Under the pieces are notes generated by a model, which saw nothing but the letters and a program-made list of their open reading frames with translations, ran no database searches and was not told the DNA's origin. 64,000 bases of DNA from Candidatus Omnitrophota bacterium (GTDB lineage Bacteria; Omnitrophota; Gorgyraeia; Zapsychrales; JBDRMG01). Each line of letters opens with the position of its first letter. Positions within the stretch are counted from its first letter, which is position 1. Where the stretch lies: positions 2,339-66,338 of the forward strand of contig JBDRMG010000065.1 in NCBI GenBank assembly GCA_043812495.1, written 5' to 3'. Positions 45,001-64,000 of this stretch are shown here, in pieces. The position numbers and the translations under genes were made by a program.

Positions 45001-48000
45001 GAAGGTCCCATGACCACGGCCTTTGGCGCCAATCTCGATGGCTATATCCTCATCGCCACCAACGACAATCCCAATCCCGCCTCCGTAACGATTCATGAAA
45101 ACAACAACGGAACCCATGCCGACAAGCTCCAGGCTGAGCGAATCTACCAAAAGAAATTAAATATTGTTGCTGTCTCACCGGAAGTTGCTCCATTTTCTAA
45201 GTCCGGCGGATTAGGTGATGTGATCCAGGGTCTCCCTAAATCACTGGCCCGCATCAAGAATCAAGTTACTGTTGTGACTCTCTTGTACGATTCCATTGAT
45301 CGCGAAAAATTTAATATTCAAGAGACCGGATTAACGATTGACGTTCCGATTGGAGGACGTCTAGAAAGAGGAGATCTCCTTACAACCCAAATCGACGGTG
45401 TTCAGTATTACTTCATTTATCATCCTCTTTACAGCAAAAAACTTTATCTGGGAACACAGCTGGGTAAATACGAAGAACAATATGAACTCATCAAAGACGT
45501 GGTTCATCATCGATTAGGTCGTCATGTTCCGGTCCACGAACTTCCTGTGTTCATCCACCAGATTTGCTATGAACAAGCTCACTTTTTATCCATGGGTGCT
45601 CTTGAGGCGATCAAAGCTCTCAAGATTGAGCCTGATATTCTACATACCCACGATTGGCAGACATCTCTGCTGCCGATATTTGTCCAAGCCCATCTCAACT
45701 ATCGAAGAGATCCCCGCTTCACGCGCGCGTTAACTGTTTATACAATCCATAATTTACGTTTTCAGGGCCGGTTCAACAAGCATCTCTTGCCGTTATCCGG
45801 AATTGACTGGGTAGAATTCACGGTCGACAAGCTGGAATTTCACGATGACATCAACCTGATGAAAGCGGGCATTGTCTATACGGATGTGGTCACGACGGTT
45901 AGCCCGAACTACAGAAATCAAATCCTCACAAAAGAATTCGGCGAAGAACTCGAAGGCGTCTTAGTCAACAACAAGGATAAATTATACGGCATCCTCAACG
46001 GTCTCGATTATCAGGAATTCGATCCACAAACAGATGAAGCATTGGCGAAAAAATACACTGTTCGTACTGTCAAGAAAGGCAAGAAAGCCAATAAGTCAAA
46101 TCTTGCTGAGCGTATGATGGAAGAAATGAAAGAAGACAATGATGCTCGTGAGCAATCGAAAGAAGACAATATCCCTCAGATCAACATAGATCCCGAGGGC
46201 ATTCTCATCAGCATGGTCGGACGCATCACTGTCCAAAAAGGTCTTGCGCTTCTTGCCGGGTCGCTTGGGCAGATTTTAGAAAATAATCCGTCTGTGCAGA
46301 TTGTCTTGGCCGGTAAACCGGATCTTGATGTGAAAGAATATGTTGAAGCTATTAATGAGGTGCAAAAACAGTATCCTGACAGGCTGATCCTCATGCCGAA
46401 ATATATCAGCGAAAACCTTGCAAGAAATATCTACGCCGCTTCCGATATCTTCTTCATGCCTTCCACCTATGAGCCCTGCGGCCTGACACAGCTCATTAGC
46501 TATCGCTACGGGACCGTACTGGTTGTCTTTAAGACAGGCGGTTTGGCCGATACAGTCCATGATTATTCTGAAAATCCTGAAATTACGACAAGCACCGGAT
46601 TTGTTTTTGACGAATACACGGTGGACGCATTCGTCGAAAAAGTCCAGCAAGCCGTTACCCTCAAGAAAGAACAGCCGGACATCTGGCATCAAATTATTAC
46701 GCACAACATGAACATAGACTTCTCCTGGGGAGTCCCCGGCGTACGATACAATGGTCTATTTACAGAGGCGTTGATGAGAAAGAATGCAAACAGATCAAAT
46801 AACAACAGTCAGGCATTGGAACTCTATAGCATATCTACAGCACCTATAGGAGGTTTGATTGTTGTTCTTGCCATGATTCTGGTTTTATTATTTATAGTCT
46901 TCCCGATGATCTCTATTGCGCTTGGCACAGGGGATTTGGGAACTCAACCGATCGTAATAAGACATTATTATAAATTACGTGAAAATGATCCTACTCTGAC
47001 TCACTTCGGAGAGATTCAAGATAATTTACGCGGAATGAAGCCGAACGAATTAGTTAAGATCATCAAAGAAATGAAAGACGATAAAATGCTGAGAGAACAC
47101 ATTCTCTTTTTAGCCTGGCATGTCGAAAGGTCATTCTGCTATTGCGATAGAAAATATTTGCGTTATCTTATCCCTGATTTCAGAAGTATATTAAATAATG
47201 ATTATTACTCTAAGGAAACAAAAACTGTTGTTATTGATGCCTTGAAAGTCCTGGCAAGACTTAGAAATGTCGAAGCAGCGTCAATACTGAGAGAACAAAA
47301 AGTCAATTTCTATGTTAAGCAAAACATCGTATCTCTTTATTTCATCAGCCTGACAGGATTTCTTGTCGGCTCTTTGCGTTCAAAAAGTGTTTCGTATAAG
47401 GATGGCCCGGAGGCTATATGGCAGAGATATCAAGAATTAGCTAAAGAAAAAGACCAAGGATTCATGATAGCTGTCGGAGGGAATATGGTTTCTTCCGGGA
47501 AGACACATATCGGCCGCATGATTTACCGGCTTTTTGCTGAACGCCTTAATAATGAGAAAGTCACCTTTATTGATCAAGATCAGTGCGCTGATGATGAAAG
47601 AATAGAATACACAAGGTTAGTTCAGTATGCAGCAGAAAAAGATAAAGTAGCGATAATCAGTACGGCGACAATAGGAGATCTCGATGATGAGCCTGATATC
47701 AAAGTTTATATTACGAATTCGCCCGTGAGCCGTTTGAGCAACCAATTAATACGTATATTATCACCGTTAAAATCCATTAAAACAGCACCCTGGATTATAT
47801 ATCATATTCTTGGACTTTTTCCATTTCTACTTCACTTCATTGTTGACCTATTTGGCTCAGCATTTGCTATGGATATCAGTGAACCCGATATCATTATTAG
47901 AAATACACTATTAGCAAGACTGACTCCTAAGAAAAAGACCGATTCCGCCCTTCGACAAGCTCAAGACAAAGCCAAACCCCGCTTAGGATTTACGCAAGAC

Positions 48001-51000
48001 GATGTTGTCACCGAAGCCAGAGGCATTATCGATTCAGAAAAGATCAACACATTTGCGATCCTGACCAAAGAGACACCTTATGTCAAAGCGGTCCTCGATT
48101 ATTATGAAAGAACCAACCAGCAGGAAAAAGCCAACAGACTGCGCGCCAGGCTCTCCGGCCACATGGTCCGCGAAGGTCCCATGACCACAGCCTTCGGCGC
48201 CAACCTCGGCGGCTATACCCTTATCGCCACCAACGACAACCCCAATCCCTCCTCTGTAACGATTCATGAAAATAACAACGGAACCCATGCCGACAACAGC
48301 AAAGAAGAAGCACTCTTTATTCAATACACAGACCGCAATACCATCCGGCAATACTTGCGCAATGCCCTTCGCAAAGGCTGGAAAGTTACCAATTTAATTT
48401 TAACGGCTTTTACCGGTTCCCAGGCCGATATGTTTACTTCCCAGATTGATTCCAGCCTCTATCCCCGAGGTACCTTCGTCAGGGCCTTGGCTGATCCTAA
48501 GGCCGGGAAAGACATGAAAACCTATGGGAGGGCCTTCGGTAACGGCCTTGCCAACCTCGGCGCCTTACGGATGTCCTTGAATGATCACGTAGCCTATCTT
48601 AACCTTCAAGAAGGGGAATATGAGCTACGCTCTATTATCGGCGAAAGATTCTTCGTCGGTTTACACGGCGGCGGGTCCTCCAGCCGTAATCCCAAATTTA
48701 CGCAAATCGGAAAATTCAACGGCACCCTTCCCATTAAGAGAGCCAAGGCTGACCCAAGCGAGCCCGACATGCCCGTAACATTGCAAGAAGAACTCCTTGC
48801 TCCGATTGCTGTCTTTAGCGATGCATATCCCGAAGGAAGGCCGGCGTACCTCAATGTCAACGGTGATGCCATTATTACATTTAACGCCGAAGAATTAAAA
48901 TCTTTCCTCCGCAGCGACAGCGAAATTGCGGAGGGCACTGTAATTCTCTTAAGAAAAGTCGATGCCTCGGAAGCTCCGACCTGGGGCGTAGCTGCGGTTG
49001 ATGACTTTGGCCACATTATTGAGTTTAAGGAGAAGCCGACCAAGGGCATGAAAGTCTCCGAGTCCGAAAGAAAAGAACTCTTAACCAGAGAAGGTCTGCT
49101 AGTCGACGACCAATATGTGCTGATGAATACCGTTTTTGCCATCCTAGGCGGTGAGGCTATGGTCCGCTGGCTTAAAATGGCCGGTGTTAAGATTACGAAA
49201 GAAGGCAATGTCATCATCGACAGCGAAGGCCAGCTTGTTTATGAAGATGACAGCGTGTATAAAAGACTGCTCACGTATGGCGGCGAATTGGATACGTTCG
49301 GGCATTTGATTTCTATCATGGCGCCTAAGGCCAATGCCCAAAAATGCATCTTTGGCGAGCTTTTGAAGAAATTTAACGAAGATGAAGACTTTATTAGAGA
49401 AATCAATGCTCTGATAAGTTTAGGCGAAGACACAGACGGTCCTCTGGACTTAGCCATTCTCAGAGGTCAGATCGAATACCGGATCGCTTATTATATTGAC
49501 GCCATCAACGCAGAAACAATCCTCTCAGTTAAAAAAGATTACACCAATAAACTTATCGCTCTTGGCCGGGCAAGTATATTTGCCATGATGTGGGAAACCC
49601 TTAGAGCCGAAGGCCCGGGAAGCGTGTTATGGGGCGCCCAGATCGAAGGTCAATGGCTGGATACGGGCCGGACGGACGAAGAAGCCGATATTATTCTCGG
49701 CAATAATCCCGGCGCCCGAGATATAGCAAAAGTCTTTAGTATTGAGCCTTCGATTGCCTCTGTCGGCGGGGCCCATGCCTTTGAAAGTATCGTCGAAGGC
49801 CAGGAAACCGAAGAAGTTCATCCAACCTCGATTCAAATACGCTCGCGCCTAACCGGCCATCAAATCGTTCTTGAAGCCGAAAGTCAAACCCATTTAGTCA
49901 GTTGGCCTTATAATATTCGGCTGATCAAAAAAGCCGTTATGAATGAAGGCGCTGTGCATGACGACAAGGGCAACGCCTGGGTCGTGCATGGCCTCTGGCA
50001 CATGAATGATTTGCCCAAAGACAGCACCTCACATTTTGGTTATGAGATTGAGCGCTGGCTGGCTGAGCATAACATAAAGAGTGAACAGGTCTTCGGTAAT
50101 GCCAAGCACACGCTTCTTTTTGCCAAGCTATTTCCCGGAGTCAGCTCAAGCGGTATCAACCAGAATAGGCCAGTTGACCAATTAGATGCCCAGCTGATCA
50201 ACGATCTTCCTTTGATTTGGATGGTCCTTCAAACCCACCAAGGCGTTATGCCCGAATCCTGGTACAGTGCCTTAAGGACCGGACGCCTGTTCTCCTTGGA
50301 TGATTTGTATCAAAAACCAAGCGTTGGCCTTTTGAGTTCGCGCCTTGAAGAAGTTTCAAAAGCCGTTCGGAAAGAAATATCCAAAGCGGCTCCCAAGGAA
50401 ATGGCTGCCGAAGAAGAGGCCGTTCAATGGAAAAACAGGGTTGTCTGGGTCATTGTTTCTCAAGATGACGAAATTATCTATTATACGAGGGGTTCTGAGA
50501 TTAAAGCATCTAAGAATAGAGACGCGTTGTTCAGCGTGGAAGGAAGAGCGGAGGAGCTGACCCCTGTGATGATGGCCAAGCTTTTGGGTGTCGAAGGAGC
50601 GACGCCAGTCATATCCGTTAAAAAGATGGGGATTTATAACTATGCGGGCGAAGAAGGCTTTGAAGGAGATATCTATAAGTACAGATATGACGATCCCGCG
50701 GGGAATCCTGAAATTCTGGATGTTCGCGTCGTCAGGATAGAGAAGTCAGCCCTGGATATACAAAGGCAGATGGCAAGCCAGAATTTAGTCAATCTTACAA
50801 AGATTGCAGCAATTAAACACGAAGAAATCAATAAATTGATTGAAGATGTCCGAAGAAGGCCGGATACATACAACAGCACCATGCGCATTATTTTGGGCTA
50901 CAAGGCCATTACCGAAAGAATCAAAGAAGCGATCGTCCGATCTCAAGAGGGGCCATCGGGTCAAAGCGGTTCTTACAAGGGTCCTCTGAGCGCAGAAGAA

Positions 51001-54000
51001 CTCAAAATAGTTCATTCCGAGATTGAGCAGGCTCACAAAGAACAAAGAGCGACTGTTGTTCATGGAAAGATTGAGGGTCTCGCTAAGGCAAGCGCCCAAC
51101 AGATCCAATCGTTCGCCGCCGCCCATGACCTTCTGAAAGGATTCACCGTCGACTTGGGAAGATTTCAAACGGGTGAAGTTGATATTTACGAATCGTTAAG
51201 AGCGTCCAATATCGTCTTGATTCTACCCAGAGCCAACGCGCCCAATCCGGTGGCCAAGATAACCCCTGCCGTTGTGATCGACGGAACCATTTACTTCTTT
51301 AGTGACCTTCAAAATATTTCCCCTGTTATTCTTGCCCAAAAGCTTCTTCATGAAGCCGTTGAATTAACCGCACAGACTAAAGCGACAGACTTTAAAAATA
51401 TCGAACAAAAAGTCCATGATTTTGCCCGAGAAACCGAAAAAGAATTCCTAAAATCAGACGCCGGACGTTTAGCCCTCCATGAGCAAACCATGGATGTCTT
51501 AAAACCTGTTCTTGAGAGAGCAAAAGAACAACTCGACCGGAGGGTTGACATCGTTATCGGCATCAATGCGCATAACGAAGTCGATAACATCACCCATGTC
51601 GTTGATTCTTTAAAACAAGGCCTAAGCAGAGACTATCCCGGCAAGACGGCCGTCCTCATTATTCTGGGAAGCCCTCTGGCGGATGAGCTCATTAGCGTTG
51701 TGAAGGCGATTCCCGAGGAAGACAACATTAAAATCATCACAATGAAAAGCCCGCACCGAGGAAAGGTTTGGGGAATCCTGAGTCTGTTTGATTTGGCCCA
51801 CTTGTTGGATGCCGAAACCGCCATCATGATTGATGCCGATATCACAAATCGCAACTTAAGCGACTGGGTGAAGGCCTATACCCAAAAAGTGGCGACTGAA
51901 GGATTTGATTATGTGGATTCCAATTATGCCAGAAACGAAATCACGGATGACGGCGGAATAACAAAATATATCATCGGGCCTGTCCTGACAAGTTTACTGT
52001 CCGTTCCGAGCGAACAACCGGTCGGCGGTGAATTCGCCTTCTCAAAGACATATATCCGCCATGCCAGACGAGACCAAAGAATCTTAGACGCTGTATTGTC
52101 AAGAAAGACATACGGCTTAACCGGAAGAGCGGCTGGATCTTTGGGTGAATATCTCATTCTCACCGGAATGCTTTCCTTAGCGGCTGAACACAATCTGAAA
52201 ATTTCCGCAAGCCTCCCCTTGGGCACCAAAGAGCACAATCCGATTATCCCCGAAGAAAGATTCACGGTTGCCTTAAGAGGATTTCTTGAACAGGTCAATA
52301 ACGACGCGGCCATTTGGCTTGGAAGAAAAGCCGATGTCGATCTCAGCGCCCTTACCTTGGCGTATTGTGCCATGGATGACGCATTGAAAACAAAACAAAG
52401 CCAATGGATGGAAAATTTCAGAAGTCACTTTACAGATTTTAAAGACATCTATTGTGCCGTTCTGACTCCCGAAACCAATGACTTATTAGAGAAGGCAGCA
52501 GTCGAAGATCAAGGTGATCTGGAAATAACTCCCGCAATCTGGGCGCAAACGATCTACGGCATCATTTTGGCCTATCATTTGCGTAGCGAAATCAACCGCG
52601 ACCGATTACTGGACGCGACCAATATCGTCTTTCAGCTGTTTTCCGCGCTGTCTGTCGCAAAGATCGCGGCCGGGGGTCTGACGGCCGAAGATTATGTGCG
52701 TGATGTTTACAAAGCATTTTCAGCCCAAAGAGACACTTTCATCAAGGCATGGCAGCAAGCCAAATGGCATCAGTTTCTTAATTCCATCAAAGAGCATCTT
52801 CCGTTAGATTTCAGACAGATCTCTTTATCCCATATCAAAGAAATCGTTATTCCTTCATGGCCGGCGTTTCGGGAATATTCATCTCAGGAGAACGATTTGC
52901 TCAGTGAAACAAAAATTTTATTGACCATACCCTCCTTCGTCGATCAGCTTTTCAGCCATAGCCTGCGATACGGTTTGCATGTCACTTACGGCCTTGCTTA
53001 TTTAAGACAGCTATCTCCGGCCAAACGGGACGATGTGTTGGGACAAATAAGAACTTTAGGCTATGCGGATTTGGCAGACTGGTTAGCCCTAAATCACAAT
53101 GCTAGAATCAACGAGGCCATGGAAGCCATCAAGGCAAGCTATCCGGATCAATCCTCCGAAGGACGCAAAGTTTTAAAAGATCTCATTGCCTTAAGAGATA
53201 TTGTCATGAGCCGTAGCCGGTCTTTAAAAGTGGCTACCGAAACATTAATCGACCATCAGGGCGACGAAGGATATCAGGGAATTTTAGACCTTTTGTTCAA
53301 CAACAAAGGGATTCTGGATGTCCTCTATGGCATTGCGCCGGTAGCCATTATCGAAACCATGGTCTCTGGAAAACGGATTGAACTTCTCAGAGAAGTCCTC
53401 TGGGCCTTGCACCAGGTGGAAGGCGTTGTTGTCAACGTGCTTGCTTTGGGCAATAACACGTACTACGTGTACGATGAAAATGCCCTGAAACGCATGGCGC
53501 CCCATAACGTGAGACGATGCACCGTGACCAAGGAAGGGCTGGAATCAAGGATCCAACTAGATCTGGCAAGAGAAAACGGAACGTATTATGACCTGCCGCG
53601 GGAAACCAGAAGAGCGTCTGTTCTTGAGGCGACTGTTGTTGATAAACTAAGTCAAGCCATTCTTCTTGTTGGGCCGGGTCAGAGATTCTCGCTTTGGGAT
53701 GAAGCATCCCGTATTCACAGGGCAGGGGCGCTTGCGTCAAGAGCATTCAGCTTAGAAGCATCAAAGGTGGATGTCAACACAACGGCCACCATTAACAGGG
53801 CCAAGGCCTTAGACGAACAAGTGAGCGCGGAGCTCGAGGCCGAGACAATAGTTAATAACCGCATTCCTCAGGTTATTATCGATGATTCCCTACCGGAAAT
53901 CTTCGCCCAGAACGCCCAGACGTTGGCCCGCTTGTCAGAAAAATACGGCGTTAAGATTATTCATTTGTCGGCTTTAAACAGGGAAATGGACCAAAGGCAA

Positions 54001-57000: not shown

Positions 57001-60000
57001 ACAAAAAATATTCCGTTCCAACCGTGCGTCGACTTTTCTATCAAGAAAATTTCACGGAAGTCGACATCCCGACTTCAAAAGATCAAAATCTCGCTGGAAA
57101 GAATTCTACCTAAAACTACTTCTCGCTATCCGTGGCTGGCGGAGAAGAATCAGTACTTCCCAGCGAGATTTTATCTAGAAAGGTCGGGGCTGGTGATCGG
57201 ATATTTTGCAGCGGCCCTGCTTATTGTCCTCATTCCTTTATTTTGCATTAAAGCGCTGGGAATAATCTTAACGGCCATGCCGTTGCTGTTGGTCGGCGGG
57301 GTTGAAGGCGAAGATTATCAGCCAATAGGCCAGGTAACCGCCCGCGCCAAAGCGCTTTCATTGATCTTCGGCGAACCTATTGAATTACTGCCGAATTTAC
57401 CGGAATACAAAGATCTTCCTGTTATCCCGCACACGGTATTCCCTGCAAACCAGGACATCACAACGGATATCAAGAAAGTCATTTTAGATCATCCTGACCT
57501 GTTTGCCGTGATCGCGGGTGTACGCAAAGCCGCCTTCATTGAAGGCTTAACTCTTACGCCTGAGCAGGAAAAAGACTTACGTCATATCTTAAGGATGCTG
57601 AACATCATGGTGCTGGCTTCCACTGATTTCATTATTCTTCCTCAAGGCCTCTACATCTATGAAGGCTACCAATTAACAGCCGAACTCTATAGGAATAATC
57701 CTTCTGACTTACGTCTTGGCTTTACCCAGGCCGGACTAAAACTACTTATCCTGCGAGATTTTGCCAGAGGTCCCGGCCATATCTTCTATGACTTAGCTGT
57801 CCAAGCATTAAATGAGCAAGATTTATCGAACATTTCATTTGTCAGAAATGTGATGGAAGTTAAGCAGGAAGCTTCTTCTAGAGAAGGCACGCTTAAAGAG
57901 TGTTATGTTCCCACCTTTGACCGGCCGGACACCTTGCACAGAGTATTAATATCCTTGAAGACACACAATAAGCTTTATGGCCATAATGTCGCTGCTGTTA
58001 TTCATGATGACTCTCGGGATAAGTCCAATGCCGAGGGCCGCAATTTTTATCAGGAGAACCAGGCCATCATCCGTGAAATGCGTACCGCCGGGTTAGATAT
58101 TATCTACATCGGCGTTGAGGATAAAACGACTAAAATAAAGAACATGGTAGACTATCTCTTCGATAAATTTAATCTGTTATTGACCCAAGGACAATTAGAT
58201 TCCTGTATCCAAGCCCAAGTCATCCGAGATGGCTCGATCGACCGGGCCCTGATAGAAAACGCAGTTGCGGCTGCCTTTGCCACCAATATCGCGGGGGTGC
58301 GCACATTCAATAATGCCCGAAGCCAGGGCGATACATTCGCCTCGATAGACGATGACGCCTTATTCCAGATCAGAGCCCATACAAGAGCAACCTGGGAGAG
58401 AATCACAGCCGGACGGGAAGAAAAAGTTTACGCGCTCGAAATATTACTTTATGGTGAATTGGCTGACCTTTGTGAAATAACCATAGAAAATCAAGAAGAT
58501 TTTCTTGGAGCATTACGTTTAATTCCCGGCCTTCCTTCGGAGAAACAGCTTGCGGCCAACGAAATCTTTGAGCGTTATTATGCCTATCCTGACGGCCTTA
58601 TTCTTGCTGCCGCCGGCCAGATTGCCGATAATCAAGATGGTAAATATGAAAACCGCCTCAGGTTTAATGATGAACTTCAGCAGGGTTTAGATCAAAAGTT
58701 AGTCGTAGTCGAAGATACCGGGGACACGTTACCGGACATTGAAGATACGGACTTTATCCTTGTGCCGGTCGACTTCTTCGGTGTTGCCAACCATCTTATG
58801 GAAACAGGCGTAACGGCTGAATCAGGCTCGCTGATGTCCAGGGATCTGCGCGGCATTGCCGGGATCCCGGCTGATCCGGCTAACATTCCTTATGGTAAAC
58901 CTATACGCGGTGTCTCGGGCCACTTTATCGGAGCTCGTGACGGCAGCGGCAGGACACACTTTATCGAAGCCATCCAGCGCTGGAAGAGAGTCAGCAGAGT
59001 CGATTCTCATGACTTTAGGAGAATGGTGCGTTTAGCCTATGCTGGGAAGATAGGGTTATTAACCAGATTCTCTATGGACCTAGGCAATGAATTCTGCTGC
59101 AATGTTCACGCCATAGACCAGCGTGGCATGGATGAAAACGGTATGTCTTTCGCTATTCCCACCGCTTCAGGCTGGCAGAGAAGAGAAGAGCCATACCTGG
59201 TACAGTTGATGAGATTCTTATTTGACGCCTGTAGCGTCTGGGCCACAGGCGGAGCCCATGAACGCGTTCCCGGCTTGCGCCGTCCAGCCATTGGTAAGCA
59301 GGCTCTCTGGGAATTTGTTACGTTAATCTCCTATGTAGACCTGCATCCGATCCTAGAAGCATTACATGAAAGTATTCCTCAGGGCAACTCAGCTGAAAGA
59401 ATCCAGGCCTTAGGCCAGGCCTATCTTGAACTGGCAAGAACCTATCAGATCCCCGCTGATCAGATTGACCGCTTAAGAAAAGAGCAGAGACTGATCTTAA
59501 AATGGGCCAATGAACTCTTTGCGCTTCTTCAGAACCCGAATATTAATATGACCGGCGATAACGAGAGAGAACTTCTTGAAATGGCTCAGGAGTTCTGTGA
59601 ACAATTTGGGCTGTCTCGCTATCGCATGACTGATGAAGGTGTCATTGTCAAAGAAATTCCTGTTTTAGAATCCGACCCTGTCTGGCAGAACGGCCGCTAT
59701 AAAGAAAAGATTACATGGAATGCCTCTGAAGAATTAGATCCTTCTATCGTGACAATGATGACGAATGATCACATAGAATATTATGCCGCTATGGAAGACG
59801 GAATAGTATTTGAAGGCTTGTTGAAGCGTACCCGCAGCATCATTATCGAGCAGATGATCTACGACGGCCTGCAGTACCTCTTATGGCCGGATATCTTAGA
59901 GGCCATGAAGAATACCGAAGGCATTGCGATGCCGGGAGAGGTGGTTGCTTCTTTAGATAACAGACTTTCGATGGAAAGACAAGAGACGTTAGAGTATTTA

Positions 60001-63000
60001 AGAGATTTTATGAATAATTGCGAGGTGGCAAGAAGCGCATCAGATTGGCATGATCATCATTTGCACGGCACATGGGATAAGATGATACGCGAAGATGATT
60101 ATCAAGCGATATGTGCTTCTTTTGAAGGAATAGAGAAAGGCAAAGATGTTTTAGTTGTTTTACTTAGCGAGCTCGTGGTCACAAATGTTATTTCTCCTAT
60201 TCGCATTCTTACTGATGAGCACGAAATATTTGCGGTGTTAAGAAAGATCGTTACAGGTTCTCAGCTAAGTGATTCAGAAAGATTAATTAAAGAAGAATTT
60301 CTTAGAATCCTTCTTTTGGAAATCAGGAATCTGCTTGGAATATTATCCCCGCCTCGTGCGGCTGAAGATGGTGAAAACAAGAAACTGATAGAGAAACTAA
60401 ACGCAATAATTAATCAAAAAGGTTCTGAAGGCAACTCTCCTTCAAAATCTCTCGACAAAATCGAACTTGTTAAGCGCAACATTGACTTCACGACTCGGCT
60501 TATTGAAGACGGACAGGTTCCGGATGTGATCGGCACGGTCGGCAACGCGGCCTCTCAAGGATTCTGGCAGACGATTATGGATATATTTGCAAGAACCATC
60601 GGAGCCAAGCGCGGCATCGCCTTAAAAGAAGATCTTCCGACCAATCAAGCATTCGGTATTTTGTACATGTGGCATAATTTGCGGGATATCATTAAGAAGG
60701 AAGGCAATCCCTTAAGCGCGTTGTTTGCTTTTGTGTTTGGCTCAGGTTCACGCTCCACGCCTTTTACCGAAACCGACTGCGCCCAAAAACCGGCCATTCA
60801 AGGTCCCGTTAAATTAGGAGAGCGCCATGTCTCAGCCGTCGAGCTTGCCATGATGTATTTCATCGGTGTGCAGAAGCATCTTTGGCGCTCCGGATTCAGA
60901 GGAATCGTTATCAAATGGGGTGATGAGATCCAAATACCCACCCTGGATTTATCTCAGGATAATCCGTTATTCCAAAATGCTGATATCGTGCGTTTTGTTT
61001 CTTTGCGAAAAATGAATGATGATGAATCCAAGAATAAAGATTGGGTCGGAGTCGACAGCGAAGGCAAAGTGACGGCCTTTATCCCCAGAAGGTCATTAAA
61101 AGAGATGGAGCTTTTAGCGGATCAAGGTTTATTGCAGCGCCGTGAAGACGGCCTCTACGGCGGCATCAACTTGGGAAGCGTCGCCATATCTTATGATTTA
61201 TTAGAAGTCTTATTAGATGAATTCAAGAATGATGTTTTAGACCCCAATGTAAAAAGAGGCGACCGCCCTGATTTAGATCCGCAGTTCTTTACAGCCGTCT
61301 GTATTGCAGCCATCGCTGATGCCGAAGCCCGGGAAACAGCATGGCAGGAAGCCATCACGACTGTCAAGGCCATGAAAGAATTCAATGACAAGATGCCGGG
61401 GGTCTTAGCCAGAATCCGCCATGCCTTAGATAACCTTGAGCAAGCCCATAGCCGTCCGATTAAGATGGTGGCCATGGATTTCTTGGATCAATACTGGGCG
61501 GATATCGGTCAGCACGCGAAGATGTTTGACTTCTTTACCTTAATTAATCAAGACGGCGCTGAAGCTGAAATCAGCCGCTCGCTGGCCGGCATCGAGGCAC
61601 AACGCGATGATAGCGGCAATATCCTCATCGGCAACTGCCAGATCAGCCCTGATGTGCAAGTGACCAATTCCATTCTCATTGACGTCCGATTGACCGGTCA
61701 AGGGCATGTCAAAAATAGCGTGTTGATCGGCACCGAAACCATGAATATAGAAGCTGTTAATGCCTTTGATTTCCAGAGCATAGTTCCGGCGATAACATTA
61801 GAAAGCAGAGCCGGCACATATAAAGTTGTTTCGGATGAGCCTGTTTATGCCCGCGAAAAAATGCGTCTCACCACTTTGTTTATGCCCTCCTATGGCATCA
61901 AGCTTATGCAGGTGCACGAAGACGATGACTTGCGCAAAGATGAGATTTACGGCAAAACGAAAGAAGGCACAGATCTAGAGCCCATTCATGGTAATGCCGT
62001 TACCTTTGTTCAAGCCCATGAGGATATGGGGCAATTAAGTTATGAAGAATTGCAGGAACGCAGAGCAAGAAGAATAGAAGAGGTGAAGGCTGTTATAACG
62101 AGTTCGAGCCGTTCTTCAGGCTCCTTTGTTGGGTCCTCTGCGTCGGAGGGTGTTGCGATAGATATCATTTCAGACCATGGCGAAATTGTCAGGATTTTAA
62201 CGGAGGCAAGTCAAGAAAGCGGATTCCCACTGGAAGGCGTCACGATTTTCAATTTTGATGAACATGATGACCGCGGCGTTGTCCCCGAAGTATTTGATCA
62301 CTGGACGAGATTTGATGGATGCTGGGCTAGCGTCGCCGAAGCAAGAAAGCTGGCTAAAGTTGTTGTGCATTGTTCTCCCAGAGTTGTTTTTAATCCAGAT
62401 TTATTCAAACAAATATTAGGACAAAAAATTCAAACACCCGTTTGGATAACCGTATGCTACGACTTCTTCTCTTATCAAATGCATGATGAACACGGCTTCC
62501 CAATGGGACAGGTCTTACGACATTTAGAAAAGAAAAGTATTAAGGCTGAAATTGAGAAGATAATTAAACTCTGCGAACATCTCAATGTCACCAGAGTTGT
62601 ACTTGCCTATTCCCCCGGTTATTTGTCAGAACGGGCAGACGCCGATTATATTAAATTCATTGATGAACAGTTTAAATTAGCCTTTGGTAAATTCGATAGT
62701 CATGCAAGAAGCGCCCTTTCTAAAAAAGACAACCCGACGGCTCTTCCTTGCAATATCCCGCTGATTGTGAGCGCCAACATCCGCACCGGCCAAGACGGTT
62801 ACACATGGGGAAGATTGGCCAAGGAATCCGAAATTCTTCGGATGTTAGGTATTACGCCTCAAGACATCGGTATATCCGATGATGAACCGGTCGGTGAGCT
62901 TTGGCTGGCTTCTGATGACCGGACATATCCTTCCCAGGTGCAATTACCCGATGGTACGACTACAACACTTCCCGAGCTCCTTGAAAAAGAAGGGAAGCGT

Positions 63001-64000
63001 ATCTTAGGAGACAAGCACTACGCCATCCATGGTCCCTACATGGCCACCATCATGAAGCTCATCGACGCCGGTCAATCCTTATCCGTTCAGGTTCACCCGG
63101 CCATGGGGCATCCCACGCGTCCGGCCAAGCCGGAGATGTGGATGGTCGGTCCGGCCGGCGCAAAATTATTCCTTGGATTTAACCAAGATGTCTCTTCCGA
63201 AATCTTAAGGGAGGCTTATGAAAACGGTACTCTCGAAGATTTGCTTTATCAAATGAGCCCGAACCCGGGAGACCTTGTTGTGGTCAGCGGCGCCTTAACC
63301 CATGCCATAAGAGCCGGCACAACCATCTGGGAATGGTCACATGCGCCAACCGGAGAAGAAATCGCCAAAGGCGATATCAAGAAAGCCACCGTGGCGCCTT
63401 GGGACCGAACAGACGGCAAAAAGCCGCGACAGGGCAAGGAAGATTTAGAAGGCACCATCGAAGTCCTGGATGACGCGACCGACAGAGCGGGTATTCCGGC
63501 CTATCAGAAGATAGATTTGAGCAAGGTCTACAGCCAAAGAAAAACAAAATATTCCGACAATAGCGGTAACAAAATTGACAGGCTCTTCACGACGACAGAG
63601 GTTGTTGTGGATGAGATAACCGTCACTGCTGCTTTGGATCAAGACACCAACGGCAACGGCTATCCGATCTTTATTCTCGAAGGTTCCCTTGAAATCCGCG
63701 CTCCGGACAATACATTAGTTGCGACGTTAAAGAAAAATGACTGCGTTCTTATCCCCGCCTATTTAGAAAAACATATCTTCATCAATAAATCCTCTAAGCC
63801 TTCCAAGATTGTCAAGTGGTATGCGCCCATAGGTCCTTCAGCTGTCTTTTCTCCTGCGATTAATGAATGTCTTGATATGAGTTCATCTGATTTCAAAAAT
63901 GAATTATTGAAGAAACAAATGATAGGTTGGGGAGAGTTATTTCTTGGAATTGCTTTCATTGCCTGCTTGATATGGGCACCTTCTTTTGAAAATGGAACTA
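1..64000 (+). CDS. Single uninterrupted giant ORF (frame +1), partial at both window edges; over 21,333 codons inside the window; mosaic multi-domain, multi-transmembrane giant protein
   Basis: Frame 1 translated codon by codon over every 60-nt line of the window with no TAA/TAG/TGA found. Translation is protein-like over most of its length, and every recognisable domain (TPR, LysM, FHA, M23, GlgA-like, PMI-like and others) is in this same frame. All other frames are fragmented into ORFs of 60-232 aa, as in the supplied track. Confidence 0.85.
199..900 (+). repeat. Array of 7 tandem TPR repeats (34 aa / 102 nt period), repeated at both DNA and protein level
   Basis: Seven consecutive units of the form AWYNRGNALTELGRYAEAIASYDSALIYKPDDAG, starting at 199, 301, 403, 505, 607, 709 and 811. 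Canonical TPR positions (W-NRG-AL--LGRY-EAI-SYD-A----P) are kept in each. Confidence 0.9.
2905..4160 (+). other. Polytopic membrane domain of about 11-12 helices; possibly a GT-C fold glycosyltransferase (PMT/ArnT-like)
   Basis: A run of hydrophobic 20-25 aa segments (LKVVTLAGLGLGVFLL, MLTAFIALGILALAGICV, ELPLLTVCALAFI, ..., YIIIGLLLSVLLIQA). An acidic DE motif (NGPFIDESFYSV) sits in the first predicted extracytoplasmic loop, as in PMT_2/ArnT-type enzymes. A soluble domain follows at 4200-4560. Confidence 0.35.
7084..7356 (+). other. Type IX secretion C-terminal sorting domain-like module (Por_Secre_tail-like), placed inside the ORF rather than at a C-terminus
   Basis: LHQNYANPFGGEGTTIEYELKEPVKTVDIEIFNILGQKVIEFRDLENGKGIHEIRWDGKDGNGEGSASGIYFYRLKVDGRIIESKKAMLI matches the consensus QNYPNPFNP.T.I.Y.L.....V.L.IYD..G..V......aG.h...WDG.d..G..vaSGvYfYrL.......kKm.L of T9SS type A CTDs. 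Confidence 0.7.
7396..7460 (+). other. Tripartite sorting-signal-like motif (SPTLP - hydrophobic helix - TRRRK) directly after the T9SS CTD-like module
   Basis: SPTLPLLAGLLLTPAIVTRRRKTG: a short motif, a hydrophobic span and a basic cluster, the architecture of PEP-CTERM/IPTL-CTERM-type signals. The assignment to a specific family is uncertain. Confidence 0.3.
8193..8284 (+). repeat. Palindromic multi-hairpin repeat element A, copy 1, inserted in frame (encodes SGTCPAGFAKGKTTSGTGPEAAMKIASGPVPA)
   Basis: Contains gggacctgtccc, ttttgccaaaggcaaaa, gggacaggtccc and gggacctgtccc inverted repeats. The 3-prime 49 nt are identical to copy 2 at 13878-13968. Confidence 0.8.
8343..8765 (-). CDS. vapC: PIN-domain toxin (VapC-like, TIGR00305-type PIN family), 140 aa, nested antisense inside the giant ORF
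   Basis: MLKAVVDTNIVVSGLL...GKILDKL....LVLSDRI.DEF.EVINRPKF.......KIAE.....AFFVEP....PIV.DP.DDKFLHAARE.GVDCIVSGDRHLLSLG....IPIL.AAEFLK fits the PIN consensus, with the conserved acidic residues (D6, E44, D95-like, SGD near the C-terminus) in place. Composition is protein-like, not S/L-rich. Confidence 0.85.
   Translation of the reverse strand: MLKAVVDTNIVVSGLLKPYSHCGKILDKLSQETFTLVLSDRIFDEFVEVINRPKFEKIIPKATVLKIAETIKDQAFFVEPLRRDPIVKADPSDDKFLHAAREGGVDCIVSGDRHLLSLGNFGKIPILPAAEFLKVLGKSR
8746..8985 (-). CDS. Putative antitoxin partner of the PIN toxin (79 aa, K/R/E-rich), GTG start, overlaps the toxin start by 20 nt
   Basis: Sits immediately upstream of the PIN gene on the same strand with the start/stop overlap typical of type II TA operons. 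A GGAGG Shine-Dalgarno lies 10 nt upstream of the GTG, and a sigma70-like promoter sits just upstream. Confidence 0.55.
   Translation of the reverse strand: MIKYSMNISEKEVEKIVDRMPKRFKLKLARKLNNETFRERWQGIFKDIRKRLRRHLVSQKEINDEIKAYRQDQYAQGRC
9010..9038 (-). promoter_or_regulatory. Sigma70-like promoter for the nested minus-strand TA operon: TTGACA-N17-TATACT, then a GGAGG SD and GTG start
   Basis: Minus-strand reading of 9038..8983 gives TTGACAggccaagagaaagcgacTATACTtaatttatcGGAGGagaagaaaccGTG. The -35 is a perfect consensus and the -10 matches 5 of 6. Confidence 0.5.
9160..9257 (+). repeat. Repeat element B, copy 1 (TM helix - FKNR - QRQGPPxGEARPPAKxRISPAL); the 65-nt core is highly conserved
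   Basis: Core ccagggcccgcctaaaggcgaggcacgcccgccggcgaaaacgagaatttcccccgccct. It is nearly identical to 13093-13157 and similar to 12451-12515, and partly to 10093-10150. It contains a cgcc-taaa-ggcg hairpin and a cgccggcg palindrome. Confidence 0.75.
9781..9957 (+). other. LysM domain. Its C-terminal 71 nt are an exact duplicate of 9408-9478, which is a partial LysM copy.
   Basis: YVIKSGDTLTEIIERELGVSAYRPVVNGQMPYEIIAENNGITDPNLIYPQDTIQM has the LysM pattern (Y.V..GDTL..IA....-....I...N.I.....I..GQ.L.IP). 9408-9478 is identical to 9885-9955 at every nucleotide. Confidence 0.7.
10040..10150 (+). repeat. Repeat element B, copy 2 (degenerate 3-prime half)
   Basis: ttaaaaaaccgcgcggcggttaaggacatgcttgaaacatccctgcagcgccagggcccgcc, then diverged sequence. 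Confidence 0.6.
10315..10509 (+). other. Second LysM-like module
   Basis: ITAVNVESGDTWGHITLDYYKTQGQGVGQLWGPDGKAYTLWSEVYGPGSDYTDMDHIRTGETIDL: an SGDTW...I..YY start and an I..G..I.L end, with a longer internal loop. Confidence 0.45.
11040..11460 (+). repeat. Acidic tandem repeats, about 3.5 units of 41-47 aa (E/S/T/A/Q-rich)
   Basis: Units start at 11061, 11184 and 11325: SSAEAAVVAGSQEASQTVEPADTQAVVSEGTEV.SEGSDNG. The period is 123-141 nt and the DNA is nearly identical between units. Confidence 0.85.
12400..12515 (+). repeat. Repeat element B, copy 3
   Basis: ttcaaaaaccgcgcggcggcgaaggaaatacttgagacatcggttcagcgccagggcccgcctaaaggcgaggtaaatccgccggcgggaataaagatctcccccgccct. Confidence 0.75.
13055..13157 (+). 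repeat. Repeat element B, copy 4
   Basis: ttcaaaaaccgtaaagtgcttgatgcatccatcccgcgccagggcccgcctatcggcgaggcacgcccgccggcgaaagcgagaatttcccccgccct. Confidence 0.75.
13878..13968 (+). repeat. Palindromic multi-hairpin repeat element A, copy 2, in frame; first two hairpins are flipped relative to copy 1
   Basis: agggacaggtccc...tagttttgcctttggcaaaatta...gggacaggtcccgaagccgctatgaagatagcctcgggacctgtccctg. The central hairpin is the exact reverse complement of the copy-1 hairpin (loop aaa vs ttt; ct vs ag). Confidence 0.8.
14284..14500 (+). other. FHA (forkhead-associated) phosphopeptide-binding domain
   Basis: SRHLAVTITPEGLAQLTDLGSENGTFIHARAEEV matches the FHA core (R.H..i.......i.DLgS.NGTfvN...i). 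Confidence 0.6.
16024..16116 (+). other. Internal C-terminal-sorting-signal-like motif no.1 (PCLTGTIIE - helix - QRRRSSR)
   Basis: FPCLTGTIIEMAAVVLLAGLGVWAAQRRRSSR: a motif, a hydrophobic span and a basic tail. Confidence 0.5.
17797..17895 (+). other. Internal C-terminal-sorting-signal-like motif no.2 (LPGVTGTIID - helix - QRKW)
   Basis: GLILPGVTGTIIDVLVVALLLAGLGVLAVQRKWF. It is 85 percent nucleotide-identical to motif no.3. Confidence 0.55.
17925..18075 (+). repeat. Array of degenerate 7-nt tandem repeats with dyad symmetry (agcgttt/agcgtag/agcgtat ... acgctat/ctcctat x3/ccgctat x4 ...) around a 9-bp-stem hairpin
   Basis: The left arm (agcgtNN)n is the reverse complement of the right arm (NNacgct)n. 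The hairpin agcgtatag(17948-17956)/ctatacgct(17973-17981) sits in the middle. Four perfect ccgctat units lie at 18004-18031. The region is in frame, and the unit length is not a multiple of 3. Confidence 0.85.
18835..18945 (+). other. Internal C-terminal-sorting-signal-like motif no.3 (LPGLTGTIIE - helix - QKRGWSRR)
   Basis: GGLILPGLTGTIIEVLVVALLLAGLGVLAQKRGWSRR. Confidence 0.55.
18967..19016 (+). repeat. Repeat element C, copy 1: palindrome gtcgggatcccgac, a 24-nt loop, then gtcggga; in frame (GIPTSTISF)
   Basis: gtcgggatcccgacttcaacaatttcatttaagagaacgtcgggattccg. Confidence 0.7.
21421..21525 (+). other. Internal C-terminal-sorting-signal-like motif no.4 (LPGVTGTLIE - helix - YRNWF)
   Basis: CLGLILPGVTGTLIEVLALLAIAGLGIIWIYRNWF. 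Confidence 0.5.
21608..21684 (+). repeat. Repeat element C, copy 2, including a 38-nt near-perfect palindrome (21610-21647); in frame (GTPTSTISY)
   Basis: gtcccgacgctccgaccataggtcggaggtcgggactccgacttccacaatttcatatggggaaacgtcggag. Confidence 0.7.
21840..22160 (-). CDS. Nested antisense small protein of 106 aa, charged and coiled-coil-like, function unknown (the track version of 119 aa starts at a TTG inside the -35 box)
   Basis: MKIKGNKTTKPLKEFSKDREFAVVLEKIHTDMRAIAEGQSILRDKLDATMGMVARNAEDITTISLRSSFMKEELTKINGKLAKMEEDIRTIKEDFGKRLTHLEAVK is K/E/D/R-rich and S/L-poor, as real proteins are. The opposing frame +1 peptide here is S/L/I-rich, which looks like passenger sequence. A sigma70-like promoter lies directly upstream. 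Confidence 0.5.
   Translation of the reverse strand: MKIKGNKTTKPLKEFSKDREFAVVLEKIHTDMRAIAEGQSILRDKLDATMGMVARNAEDITTISLRSSFMKEELTKINGKLAKMEEDIRTIKEDFGKRLTHLEAVK
22171..22199 (-). promoter_or_regulatory. Sigma70-like promoter TTGACA-N17-TAAAAT for the nested minus-strand small gene; near-leaderless
   Basis: Minus strand: TTGACAatatttttgtgctggatTAAAATaagcgccatcATG. The -35 is perfect and the -10 matches 5 of 6. About 10 nt separate the -10 from the ATG. Confidence 0.45.
22507..22541 (+). repeat. Repeat element C, copy 3 (subfamily with atcaaaatctcg)
   Basis: ggcatcccgacttccacgaatcaaaatctcggcag. Confidence 0.55.
27420..27800 (+). other. Peptidase M23 (LytM/lysostaphin-like) metallopeptidase domain
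   Basis: EWEHKGIDLVVETNMFIYVPKEFDGAKV...HYGNVIDITKV...YTLRIAHVGTVWPDLGDIVKTGQVLALTDVITGWAHQSMLPGSKMLEHIHVEILKNGKNVDPEEHM has the H.G.D ... G....HLHFE...nG..vdP layout of M23 peptidases. Confidence 0.7.
44797..45126 (+). repeat. Conserved ~110-aa repeat domain R, copy 1 (unknown function)
   Basis: HAKPRLGFTEDDVVAEAKDIIHSEKIHTFAILTEETPYVKAVLDYYEQNNQLEKAKRLRDRLSGHMVREGPMTTAFGANLDGYILIATNDNPNPASVTIHENNNGTHADK. The same domain recurs at 47968-48300 and 56395-56735 with mostly synonymous differences. Confidence 0.8.
45154..46760 (+). other. glgA: Glycogen/starch synthase (GlgA, GT5-like) catalytic module embedded in the giant ORF
   Basis: KLNIVAVSPEVAPFSKSGGLGDVIQGLPKSLA is the GlgA N-terminal ADP-glucose-binding motif (V.SE..PF.KTGGLaDV.gaLP.aL). 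Further GlgA-type motifs: LHTHDWQTSL, GILNGLDYQEFDPQTD, LISMVGRITVQKGLALL, IVLAGKPD and [34 protein letters not shown]. Confidence 0.85.
47968..48300 (+). repeat. Repeat domain R, copy 2
   Basis: KAKPRLGFTQDDVVTEARGIIDSEKINTFAILTKETPYVKAVLDYYERTNQQEKANRLRARLSGHMVREGPMTTAFGANLGGYTLIATNDNPNPSSVTIHENNNGTHADNS. Confidence 0.8.
48640..49380 (+). other. Sugar-1-phosphate nucleotidyltransferase-like module (GlgC / ADP-glucose pyrophosphorylase-like)
   Basis: FFVGLHGGGSSSRNPKFTQIGK is a G-rich NTP-transferase loop. WGVAAVDDFGHIIEFKEKP resembles GlgC YGVM.vDe.GrIieF.EKP. It sits 1.9 kb downstream of the GlgA-like module. Confidence 0.5.
56395..56735 (+). repeat. Repeat domain R, copy 3
   Basis: HAKPRPGYTEEDVVKEATEIITSGRINNQAAWAILTEDVDWIKAVLDYYEITHQTEKAERLRARLSGRMVREGPMTTAFGANLNGYILIATNDNPNPAAVLAHENHGKSHSEN. 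Confidence 0.8.
57058..57098 (+). repeat. Repeat element C, copy 4 (subfamily with atcaaaatctcg)
   Basis: gaagtcgacatcccgacttcaaaagatcaaaatctcgctgg. Confidence 0.55.
57895..58600 (+). other. GT2-like (GT-A fold) glycosyltransferase module
   Basis: ECYVPTFDRPDTLHRVLISLKTH ... NVAAVIHDDSRDKS follows the GT2 pattern (iP.yN....L...L.Sl..Q, then a D.D/DDgS.D motif). Confidence 0.4.
60780..61900 (+). other. Nucleotidyltransferase-like region ending in left-handed beta-helix hexapeptide repeats
   Basis: ILIGNC QISPDV QVTNSI LIDVRL TGQGHV KNSVLI GTE shows 6-residue periodicity, typical of the C-terminal LbH domains of sugar-nucleotide pyrophosphorylases. The upstream part (WGDEIQIP...GGINLGS) is nucleotidyltransferase/fucokinase-like. 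Confidence 0.35.
62890..63400 (+). other. Type I phosphomannose isomerase (ManA-like cupin) module
   Basis: GELWLASDD..., then LIDAGQSLSVQVHP (the PMI zinc-binding QVHP motif), then PGDLVVVSGALTHAIRAGTTIWEWS (PMI pG.aifipAGt.HAy..G...E motif). Confidence 0.65.

Follow-up and report, generated by a model that had tools for sequence, protein, structure and literature searches.

Sugar-nucleotide and glycan-synthesis enzyme modules within one giant, membrane-anchored open reading frame of the Candidatus Omnitrophota type

The DNA analysed here, a stretch of 64,000 nucleotides that we call the window, is read through by one open reading frame (ORF). Its 3' region is probably the 3' part of a giant gene of a kind found in Candidatus Omnitrophota, coding for a membrane-anchored "multi-enzyme" whose activities would lead from sugar activation to glycan synthesis. 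The ORF occupies frame 1 of the plus strand (nt 1-63,999), the strand of all features described below. A six-frame stop count of the 64-kb window finds no stop codon there in 63,999 nt and 846 to 1,529 in each of the other five frames. All modules therefore belong to one ORF, as the earlier note had claimed for the 3' enzymes. Since frame 1 is free of stops of any type, we rejected the possibilities that the ORF is an artefact or that it follows an alternative genetic code. The ORF comprises at least 21,333 codons and runs past both ends of the window, so that all lengths are lower bounds.

The order of modules is repeat R and a GlgA-type synthase, a transmembrane (TM) helix, R and a nucleotidyltransferase (NTP1), a first copy of an uncharacterised module X, R again, a TM hairpin, a second copy of module X, an unassigned block and a phosphomannose isomerase (PMI). 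The main proposal, that enzymes of sugar-nucleotide and glycan synthesis, usually soluble, are fused in frame in a giant polypeptide containing TM segments, thus holds. Three of the five enzymes named before, the GlgA, GlgC-like and PMI modules, were recovered; the GT2 module proved to be mis-assigned, and a second nucleotidyltransferase with its left-handed beta-helix lacks support. The window also contains six TPR repeats and a borderline M23 match (Pfam scan). For the M23, LysM and FHA modules reported upstream, the Pfam matches are only borderline.

The GlgA-type glycogen/starch synthase (nt 45154-46800; GT5 N-domain plus GT1 C-domain) confirms the earlier assignment to nt 45154-46760. It matches PF08323 (4e-63, nt 45160-45963) and PF00534 (7e-20, nt 46159-46671), and its 420.6 bits against the NCBIfam model TIGR02095 (glgA) lie above the curated threshold of 328.45. 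The closest solved structures are SS4 (6gne, 1e-62) and the E. coli glycogen synthase (2qzs, 4e-56). Alignment to these two enzymes places the motifs KSGGL (nt 45199-45213, aa 15067-71), HDW (nt 45649-45657, aa 15217-19), RITVQKG, i.e., the R..QKG loop (nt 46222-46242, aa 15408-14), EPCG (nt 46471-46482, aa 15491-94) and TGGLADT (nt 46531-46554, aa 15512-18). The substrate-binding and catalytic set is present: the Lys of KxGGL, the His of HDW, the R/K of RxxxQKG and the Glu of EPCGL. The module aligns end to end with stand-alone bacterial GlgA of about 484 aa, all catalytic motifs being retained; the nearest of these, however, shares just 37-38% identity with it. Only such ordinary proteins, and no giants, were found among the best 120 homologues.

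NTP1 (nt 48649-49800) resembles sugar-1-phosphate nucleotidyltransferases of the GlgC or fucose-pyrophosphorylase type. It reaches 25.5 bits against PF00483 (cut-off 21.2; 500-aa scan). The match to PF07959 is marginal, with 34.8 bits in the long-chunk scan (cut-off 34) and 24.7 in the short one, and the NCBIfam matches to glgC and FKP are weak. The signature set is complete: a G-rich loop with Arg (GGGSSSR, nt 48667-48687, aa 16223-29), the GD of NGDA (nt 48862-48873, aa 16287-90), the Lys of (F)xEKP (FKEKP, nt 49024-49038, aa 16342-46) and WxDxG (WLDTG, nt 49654-49668, aa 16552-56). The GlgC-like enzyme proposed for nt 48640-49380 is thus weakly confirmed as a nucleotidyltransferase fold, but not at the level of GlgC: against TIGR02091 it scores 24.4 bits (1.4e-5), the equivalog cut-off being 424.9, and against ADP-glucose pyrophosphorylases in the PDB the E-value is about 0.4 at best.

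The PMI module (nt 62779-63336) is of type I, in agreement with the prediction for nt 62890-63400. It matches PF20511 (34.4 bits, cut-off 22, nt 62785-63102) and TIGR00218 manA (2.5e-11, 43.4 bits), the latter below the cut-off of 116.2. All four Zn ligands expected of the family, Q, H, E and H, have putative counterparts: Q21030 (nt 63088-63090), H21032 (nt 63094-63096), E21045 (nt 63133-63135) and H21101 (nt 63301-63303). Their contexts, SVQVHP for the first two, KPEMW for the third and THA for the last, align with the ligand sites of 1pmi/5nw7 and 1zx5; 1qwr could also be aligned. A weak Cupin_2 match follows on the 3' side (nt ~63667-63813). A PMM/PGM module that would link the PMI to a nucleotidyltransferase was not found within the window. 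NTP1 and the PMI retain the signature residues of stand-alone GlgC and ManA, yet both score far below the equivalog cut-offs, and their substrates are therefore uncertain. The stand-alone enzymes GlgA, GlgC and ManA are soluble and encoded in glg or man operons, whereas the modules of the window sit within a TM-anchored giant polypeptide.

A GT2-like glycosyltransferase had been placed at nt 57900-58600. Neither Pfam nor NCBIfam contains a GT2 family match there at E<=1, other families likewise gave none, and the stretch turned out to be the N-terminal part of a larger unit. This module X comprises some 900-1,100 aa and occurs twice in the window, as copy A (nt 52738-56115, aa 17580-18705), which had been overlooked, and copy B (nt 57331-59988, aa 19111-19996). 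A profile search of 1.84 billion proteins yielded 47 representatives of this rare family; relatives of copy A are 30-50% identical to it. A DDD motif is invariant in 35/35 module X sequences, and more than 40 further near-invariant residues are retained by both copies in the window. Copy A keeps 45 of the 46 family-invariant residues, including DDD (nt 54250-54258), and the two copies keep 42-45 of 46, though their mutual identity is only about 22%. A second invariant set consists of R-x-E-E-P, N, Q and E.

A confident AlphaFold model and the invariant DDD suggest that module X has a GT-A-like core. In the AF2 model of copy B (pLDDT 79.6, pTM 0.82) this predicted core corresponds to nt ~57892-58440: strand beta1 (CYVPTFD) begins at nt 57901, beta2 ends with DD (nt 58006-58011) and beta4 with the invariant DDD (nt 58348-58356). 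The predicted layout, beta1-alpha1-beta2(DD)-...-beta4(DDD), resembles that of GT-A glycosyltransferases with a DxD motif, e.g., the GT2 enzyme GlfT2 (PDB 4fiy); module X differs from them by its length of about 1,000 aa with additional N- and C-terminal domains. Foldseek lists GT-A enzymes on top for copy B, none of them significant (best E = 0.037, TM-score 0.2-0.28). Searches of PDB sequences with a single module X sequence or with the family profile gave no match. The module X alignment found nothing in metagenome contigs, the automatically chosen patterns being poor, nor did a word-indexed homologue search with an alignment of 17 sequences.

The nucleotidyltransferase with a hexapeptide beta-helix tail that had been proposed for nt 60780-61900 found no support in the tests applied. 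The region (nt 60721-61830) offers motif look-alikes only: GSGSR (nt 60739-60753), GDE (nt 60919-60927), RDDSG (nt 61603-61617), in which R takes the place of W at the WxDxG position, and a hexapeptide-like run (nt 61621-61731). It has no Pfam or NCBIfam match at E<=1 and no relevant one in the PDB, and a single-sequence AF2 model reaches a pLDDT of 34. A Smith-Waterman comparison with NTP1 gave z = 1.55, a score equalled or exceeded in 85 of 1,000 shuffles, and the use of strong nucleotidyltransferases of P0135 and of relative L004 as bridges was likewise negative.

The scattering of TM helices and of repeat R among the enzymes, also described before, is real. Tiled self-BLAST and an HMM of R, applied to the whole window protein, find three copies (iE 1e-87 to 4e-91). 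The first (nt 44746-45147, aa 14916-15049) ends 2 residues ahead of the GlgA module, the second (nt 47953-48321, aa 15985-16107) precedes the G-loop of NTP1 by about 110 aa, and the third (nt 56329-56757, aa 18777-18919) separates copy A of module X from the TM hairpin. Their dN/dS of 0.21-0.26 indicates purifying selection. Taking the window and relative L004 together, R precedes GlgA, NTP1, module X, an epimerase and an NDK-NTP_transferase unit. It may be regarded as a conserved "module header" that borders nucleotide-binding enzyme modules on their N-terminal side, and it probably serves docking or folding. Comparisons of R with Pfam, NCBIfam and a PDB profile returned noise only and no known autoprocessing family; against genome, metagenome and viral contigs there were pattern matches, none of which was confirmed. 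One may speculate, though the odds are against it, that module X represents an unrecognised family of GT-A-type glycosyltransferases of about 1,000 aa confined to megaproteins of the Omnitrophota type, and that R, as a lineage-specific docking header, orders nucleotide-sugar enzymes into an assembly line within one chain, a logic akin to that of PKS/NRPS.

Giant proteins of this kind are not without relatives. The "Archaeovorins" (West-Roberts et al. 2023, bioRxiv 10.1101/2023.11.21.568195), typified by a protein of 39,678 aa from Ca. Velamenicoccus archaeovorus, are likewise encoded by one ORF, tens of thousands of codons long, and have many TM helices; the window protein, with at least 21,333 aa and 71-75 TM candidates, falls within their range (>=10-30 kaa, numerous TM helices). 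Their most frequent domains include GT5 glycogen-synthase-like and GT1 ones, and TPR, peptidase-like domains and embedded glycolytic or sugar-phosphate enzymes (GPI, PGM/PMM and others) also occur; the window has GT5, GT1, TPR, PMI, NTP-transferase and a borderline M23. The differences are that HEAT, NUDIX, methyltransferase and C39 domains were not detected in the window's 21,333 aa, nor was the divergent SecA-DEAD-like domain of the Archaeovorin type in this part of an ORF that continues past both ends. The searched text of that preprint does not mention type I PMI, a fucose-pyrophosphorylase/GlgC-like module, module X or R. A second preprint (bioRxiv 10.64898/2026.06.07.730766) describes a class of "multi-enzyme metabolic clusters" among the long proteins of Omnitrophota, with a Pfam "Module 2 - sugar metabolism". 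There, too, many enzyme Pfams tile one membrane-associated chain, PF08323 and PF00534 alongside sugar-phosphate enzymes; PF07959, PF00483 and PF20511, however, are not listed, and a Pfam-based catalogue is blind to the Pfam-dark module X and R.

Of the relatives of module X only two carry an organism name, and both are proteins from Ca. Omnitrophota MAGs and partial ORFs. An exact 51-mer of the window has no match in the representative genomes of GTDB. In the relatives, the partners fused to module X are GT5, GT1, fucose pyrophosphorylase, GDP-mannose dehydratase/epimerase, GDPGP1, PGM/PMM, a cupin GPI, and NDK plus NTP_transferase. The fused enzymes would form a path. Hexose phosphates would be interconverted by the PMI in the window and by PGM/PMM or GPI in the relatives. 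Activation to NDP-hexoses would be the task of NTP1 or, in the relatives, of ManC-type, fucose-pyrophosphorylase and NDK modules. Transfer and polymerisation would fall to the GlgA-type GT5, building alpha-glucan from ADP-glucose, and to the two copies of module X as putative Mn/Mg-dependent GT-A transferases using DDD. The polypeptide may be active intact or once processed. That the whole serves as an envelope-remodelling or polysaccharide-secretion machine, as the earlier note suggested, we can only infer.

Processing is central to a different explanation: the giant ORF might be a mere delivery format for a polyprotein that is cut into separate enzymes and membrane pieces, with R or the adjoining linkers marking the points of processing or docking. 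We consider this unlikely. The same modules do occur in relatives as separate proteins of 0.8-2.7 kaa: in L001 four ORFs follow one another, every one of which begins with a signal-peptide-like segment of its own and has a conserved tail, and L003 encodes a module X protein of 1,938 aa and a separate GT5 protein of 1,658 aa. R is placed exactly at module N-termini, and cleavage of giant proteins by C39/S8 peptidases has been proposed (West-Roberts et al., 10.1101/2023.11.21.568195). However, some ORFs of the relatives only look split because of frameshifts, which are probably indels of the assembly; the C-terminal tail domain or motif of L001 is absent from the window; the window's last third contains neither a protease domain nor a recognisable cleavage motif; and R, as said, matches no autoprocessing family.

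The location of the enzymes is a paradox that the window protein has in common with the Archaeovorins. Scans of the whole window yield 71 TM segments by Kyte-Doolittle and 75 candidates by the Hessa scale, 21 of them strong; the majority of these some 70 hydrophobic candidates lies in the first 25 kb. In the enzyme region a strong helix (nt 46846-46902, aa 15616-15634, summed Hessa dG -5.5) follows directly after GlgA, a hairpin (nt 56863-57249; aa 18955-18973 and 19065-19083, dG -3.2 and -2.0) encloses a K/R-rich loop of 91 aa, and a hydrophobic candidate (nt 63919-63975, aa 21307-21325) ends the last soluble block. A crude parse by hydrophobicity and the positive-inside rule, based on four strong TM helices, puts the first R and GlgA into the cytoplasm and the enzyme blocks of 3,320 and 2,223 aa on the opposite side, an outcome that flips should a single weak hydrophobic segment really span the membrane. 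The enzyme modules might have been expected in cytoplasmic loops; for R-GlgA this holds, but the other blocks do not clearly comply.

An export of the enzyme blocks to the non-cytoplasmic side is nevertheless improbable, more so than cleavage of a polyprotein. The parse just described and the borderline LysM and M23 matches in the upstream ORF speak in its favour. GlgA, nucleotidyltransferases and PMI, however, depend on metabolites of the cytoplasm, namely ADP-glucose, NTPs and hexose phosphates, and to our knowledge the export of soluble blocks of 2,000-3,300 aa is without precedent. The sugar-phosphate enzymes of Archaeovorins have been predicted to be extracellular, and a pre-processing of external sugars was discussed, but the authors themselves suspect overlooked TM helices (10.1101/2023.11.21.568195). 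The 2026 preprint proposes a cytoplasmic-face reading for proteins with TM helices only, while some multi-enzyme giants are predicted to have a signal peptide plus TM helices (10.64898/2026.06.07.730766).

That the modules are decayed relics whose only remaining role is structural, as spacers of a giant surface protein, is very improbable: NTP1 and PMI are indeed highly divergent and far under equivalog cut-offs, and the claimed second nucleotidyltransferase has only look-alike motifs with R for W at WxDxG, yet the catalytic or ligand residues checked in GlgA, NTP1 and PMI are all intact, so that the recognisable enzymes do not look like pseudo-domains, the module X copies retain their invariant residues despite their divergence, and R has a dN/dS of about 0.2.

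The favoured reading thus remains that of a membrane-anchored multi-enzyme acting from sugar activation to glycan synthesis. The observation is real but mostly not new, because such proteins have already been described in Omnitrophota: giant TM-rich proteins of this group that unite starch-synthase, GT1 and sugar-phosphate enzymes were published in 2023 and 2026. Since the general phenomenon is in print, the overall picture is unchanged; only module X and the R header are new, and modestly so. The giant genes of Omnitrophota are among the longest known. The window presents a well-resolved case, in which sugar-activation and glycan-synthesis enzymes, catalytically intact as judged by their motifs, are hard-wired into one membrane-anchored chain. 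With module X and R, Pfam-dark yet conserved building blocks have been isolated from a giant protein; because they are small enough to be expressed, they give practical access to the biochemistry of giant proteins and to the logic of their assembly.

The whole window lies within a single giant gene, because its frame 1 is free of stop codons throughout nt 1-63,999 (21,333 codons, both ends open), whereas the five remaining frames of the six-frame translation have 846-1,529 each. That all modules share one frame, as the earlier note had it, is therefore correct; chance or an alternative genetic code as the source of this layout is ruled out. The ORF listing, in which ORFs running past the window ends are not counted, has seven short ones on the minus strand. 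Five enzyme modules had been claimed in the 3' third. Judged by sequence, three are confirmed and intact; one has to be re-assigned to a larger, uncharacterised and probably GT-A-like module that is present twice, and one is unsupported. The feature is genuine. Its kind, cytoplasmic-type sugar enzymes in a giant membrane protein, is already known from the literature.

The GlgA-type synthase is clear. It matches PF08323 (4e-63, nt 45160-45963) and PF00534 (7e-20, nt 46159-46671) in Pfam, and reaches 420.6 bits with the NCBIfam model TIGR02095 (glycogen/starch synthase, ADP-glucose type) versus a curated cut-off of 328. Among PDB entries it matches SS4 of Arabidopsis (1e-62) and the glycogen synthase of E. 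coli (4e-56) best, and all catalytic signatures, KSGGL, HDW, RxxxQKG, EPCGL and TGGLADT, are kept. The closest GlgA relatives, at 37-38% identity, are enzymes of the ordinary kind, 484 aa long. The first nucleotidyltransferase module, NTP1, had been called GlgC-like. The fold stands, with PF00483 at 25.5 bits (cut-off 21.2), PF07959 (fucose pyrophosphorylase) at 34.8 (cut-off 34) and the motifs kept (G-rich loop with Arg, GD, FxEKP, WLDTG), but the NCBIfam match to TIGR02091 (glgC) is weak (1.4e-5). NTP1 is a divergent nucleotidyltransferase-fold module, not a GlgC equivalog. The type I phosphomannose isomerase was correctly recognised: PF20511 gives 34.4 bits (cut-off 22), TIGR00218 2.5e-11, the PDB entries 1zx5, 1pmi and 1qwr match at about 3e-4, and the ligand positions are occupied by Gln, His, Glu and His. 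In all three modules the catalytic residues are intact.

The supposed GT2 glycosyltransferase has no GT2 or other family match in Pfam or NCBIfam, and none among PDB sequences. It makes up the N-terminal portion of copy B (aa 19111-19996) of a module here called X, the copy A of which (aa 17580-18705) had been missed. These paralogues, of ~900-1,100 aa and ~22% mutual identity, each have a separate subfamily of relatives with up to 50-58% identity. A search of 5.8 billion proteins with the last 2,084 aa yielded a single relative, P0121 (24% identity over ~800 aa); a profile built from P0121 and the window sequence then matched 47 proteins in an exhaustive search of 1.84 billion representatives. 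More than 40 residues are near-invariant in the family, including the T/R in VPTFDRP and the D after the second strand; DDD is found in 35 of 35 sequences, and R-x-E-E-P/N/Q/E forms a downstream conserved set. Copy A keeps 45, copy B 42 of the 46 family-invariant residues. An AlphaFold model based on a 17-sequence alignment is confident (pLDDT 79.6, pTM 0.82) and places conserved residues as in GT-A enzymes: at beta1-alpha1, DD after beta2 and DDD after beta4. Foldseek found nothing significant in the PDB (best GlfT2, E = 0.037), and the family profile had no match among PDB sequences. The top of the Foldseek list, all non-significant, consists almost entirely of GT-A transferases (GlfT2, clostridial toxin GT domains, Ktr4/CmsA, MGAT2, chondroitin synthase, glycogenin, GtrB). 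Because of the model's layout and this list, module X is probably a GT-A-like transferase of an uncharacterised family.

The other claimed nucleotidyltransferase, NTP2, which was to carry a hexapeptide tail, could not be substantiated. The region has no match in Pfam, NCBIfam or PDB sequences, its single-sequence AlphaFold model has a pLDDT of 34, and its collinear motif likeness to NTP1 (z = 1.55, matched by 85 of 1,000 shuffles) is not above control. Strong nucleotidyltransferases of the relatives, tried as bridges, gave no link to it. The unannotated block between NTP1 and copy A contains two sub-threshold GT-A-type matches, Glyco_tranf_2_4 (aa 16754-16831, nt ~50260-50490; E = 0.15) and a mannosylglycerate-synthase GT domain (aa 17276-17362, nt ~51826-52086; E = 0.0013, 18.7 bits, cut-off 27); it may be a further divergent transferase.

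Repeat R, a domain of ~130 aa, is indeed interspersed among the enzymes. Tiled self-BLAST and an HMM reveal three copies, 60-80% identical: R1 (aa 14916-15049) adjoins GlgA, R2 (aa 15985-16107) lies upstream of NTP1, and R3 (aa 18777-18919) between copy A of module X and the TM hairpin preceding copy B. A dN/dS of 0.21-0.26 indicates purifying selection. No relatives were found in Pfam, NCBIfam or PDB, nor in the genome, metagenome and viral contig collections searched. Only one other lineage has R, P0159/L004 (ENA contig ERZ25039480 contig_92117). Its three copies, 44-48% identical, head module X, an NAD-epimerase/GDP-mannose-dehydratase domain and an NDK plus NTP_transferase pair. In both lineages R is thus placed like a header to enzyme modules that bind nucleotides. 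The third copy on L004 (nt ~9446-9908) is in two frames, with a break at ~nt 9677. Since this frameshift falls inside the R domain, a single larger ORF was probably broken up into the called genes, by indels or a genuine frameshift.

The proteins related through module X are large, or are fragments cut short by their contigs. They join it to GT5, GT1/GT4, fucose pyrophosphorylase (2.6e-26), epimerase/GDP-mannose dehydratase, GDPD, GDPGP1, methyltransferase, uridine-kinase-like and PHP domains. The two that carry an organism name, MBU1124772.1 and MCF7917348.1, both partial, come from MAGs of Candidatus Omnitrophota. Neighbouring ORFs encode PGM/PMM, aldo-keto reductase and cupin GPI. On two contigs the modules are separate proteins of 0.8-2.7 kaa. 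One, L001 (JGI 3300077567, Ga0643578_0001459, nt 3-17654), resembles the same enzyme array split into a series: four large ORFs (790+, 1758, 2709 and 914+ aa) follow each other at 2-13 nt. Three of the four have a signal-peptide-like start, the first being cut at the contig edge, and all three with complete C-termini share a conserved ~190-aa tail, ...DY(M/I)RTHKQAL(I/V)AA*, which is absent from the window. The other, L003 (NCBI GCA_041643115.1, JBGGHG010000450.1), has the closest copy A relative (50% identity over 1,235 aa), a protein of 1,938 aa that contains GDPD and GDP-glucose-phosphorylase-like domains. Between it and a GT5 protein of 1,658 aa lies a ParE/Phd toxin-antitoxin pair; genes of an ordinary kind come next (P-type ATPase, PAS kinase, response regulator).

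Transmembrane helices do lie among the enzyme modules, with four strong candidates in the 3' third (aa 15616, 18955, 19065 and 21307). The flank following a hydrophobic segment near aa 14811, upstream of R1, is strongly positive, which by the positive-inside rule puts R1-GlgA on the cytoplasmic side; the later hairpin has a positive loop of 91 aa, on that side too. At face value, enzyme blocks of 3,320 and 2,223 aa would then be outside, unless one of two weak hydrophobic stretches (aa 15776-15794 or 15930-15948) truly crosses the membrane and flips the topology. The paradox spans aa 14830-21306 (nt ~44488-63918). A cytoplasmic location seems the likelier, as enzymes of these families depend on NTPs and NDP-sugars. 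Two preprints note the same paradox (bioRxiv 10.1101/2023.11.21.568195; bioRxiv 10.64898/2026.06.07.730766).

The 5' part of the ORF carries six strong TPR repeats (aa 65-200). A helix cluster at nt ~2900-4170 (aa 969-1388) includes a sub-threshold match to PMT_2, a GT-C type glycosyltransferase (aa 1105-1237, E = 1.3e-4, 22.7 bits, cut-off 26.1); were this match genuine, the giant protein would also include a transferase for lipid-linked sugars. The TM-rich 5' part also has short internal repeats of 40-89% identity (aa 2707-2771/4602-4666, 5931-6013/6279-6351/7140-7222, 3137-3163/3296-3322 and 3688-3731/3776-3819), several with a TM helix inside, e.g., IIDVLVVALLLAGLGVLA, found twice. Between nt ~25200 and 40300 (aa ~8400-13440) follows a very large "dark" soluble block, ~5,000 aa with neither TM candidate nor Pfam match except a borderline Peptidase_M23 (aa ~9149-9263, 24.9 bits, cut-off 28.7).

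That sugar-nucleotide enzymes occur together is a feature conserved across the relatives. We infer that the giant protein is a membrane-tethered metabolon. It would interconvert hexose phosphates, activate them to NDP-sugars and spend these on the synthesis of alpha-glucan and other glycans; the TM helices would be its anchors and R a docking or folding header. The single ORF could also encode a polyprotein that is processed, which we consider unlikely; export as a prey-processing array is more doubtful still. That the modules are decayed pseudo-enzymes is contradicted by the residue checks and hardly credible. West-Roberts et al. 2023 describe "Archaeovorins", giant, TM-rich Omnitrophota proteins, in which GT5 glycogen-synthase-like and GT1 domains rank second in commonness, TPR is frequent, and domains of GPI, PGM/PMM, TPI, FBPase and aldolase are also present (bioRxiv 10.1101/2023.11.21.568195). 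In a 2026 preprint with a catalogue of 916 long proteins of Omnitrophota, one class is named "multi-enzyme metabolic cluster", and a Pfam module for sugar metabolism comprises PF08323 (153 proteins), PF00534 (127), PGM/PMM and ROK kinase (bioRxiv 10.64898/2026.06.07.730766). The window protein fits both descriptions. Its 21,333 aa, from an ORF open at both ends, show no SecA-DEAD, HEAT, NUDIX or C39 domain. PF07959, PF00483 and PF20511, in contrast to the window, are absent from the searched text of the 2026 preprint, and the searched passages of neither paper mention the specific phosphomannose isomerase and pyrophosphorylase modules, module X or R. Module X and the R header are what is modestly new.
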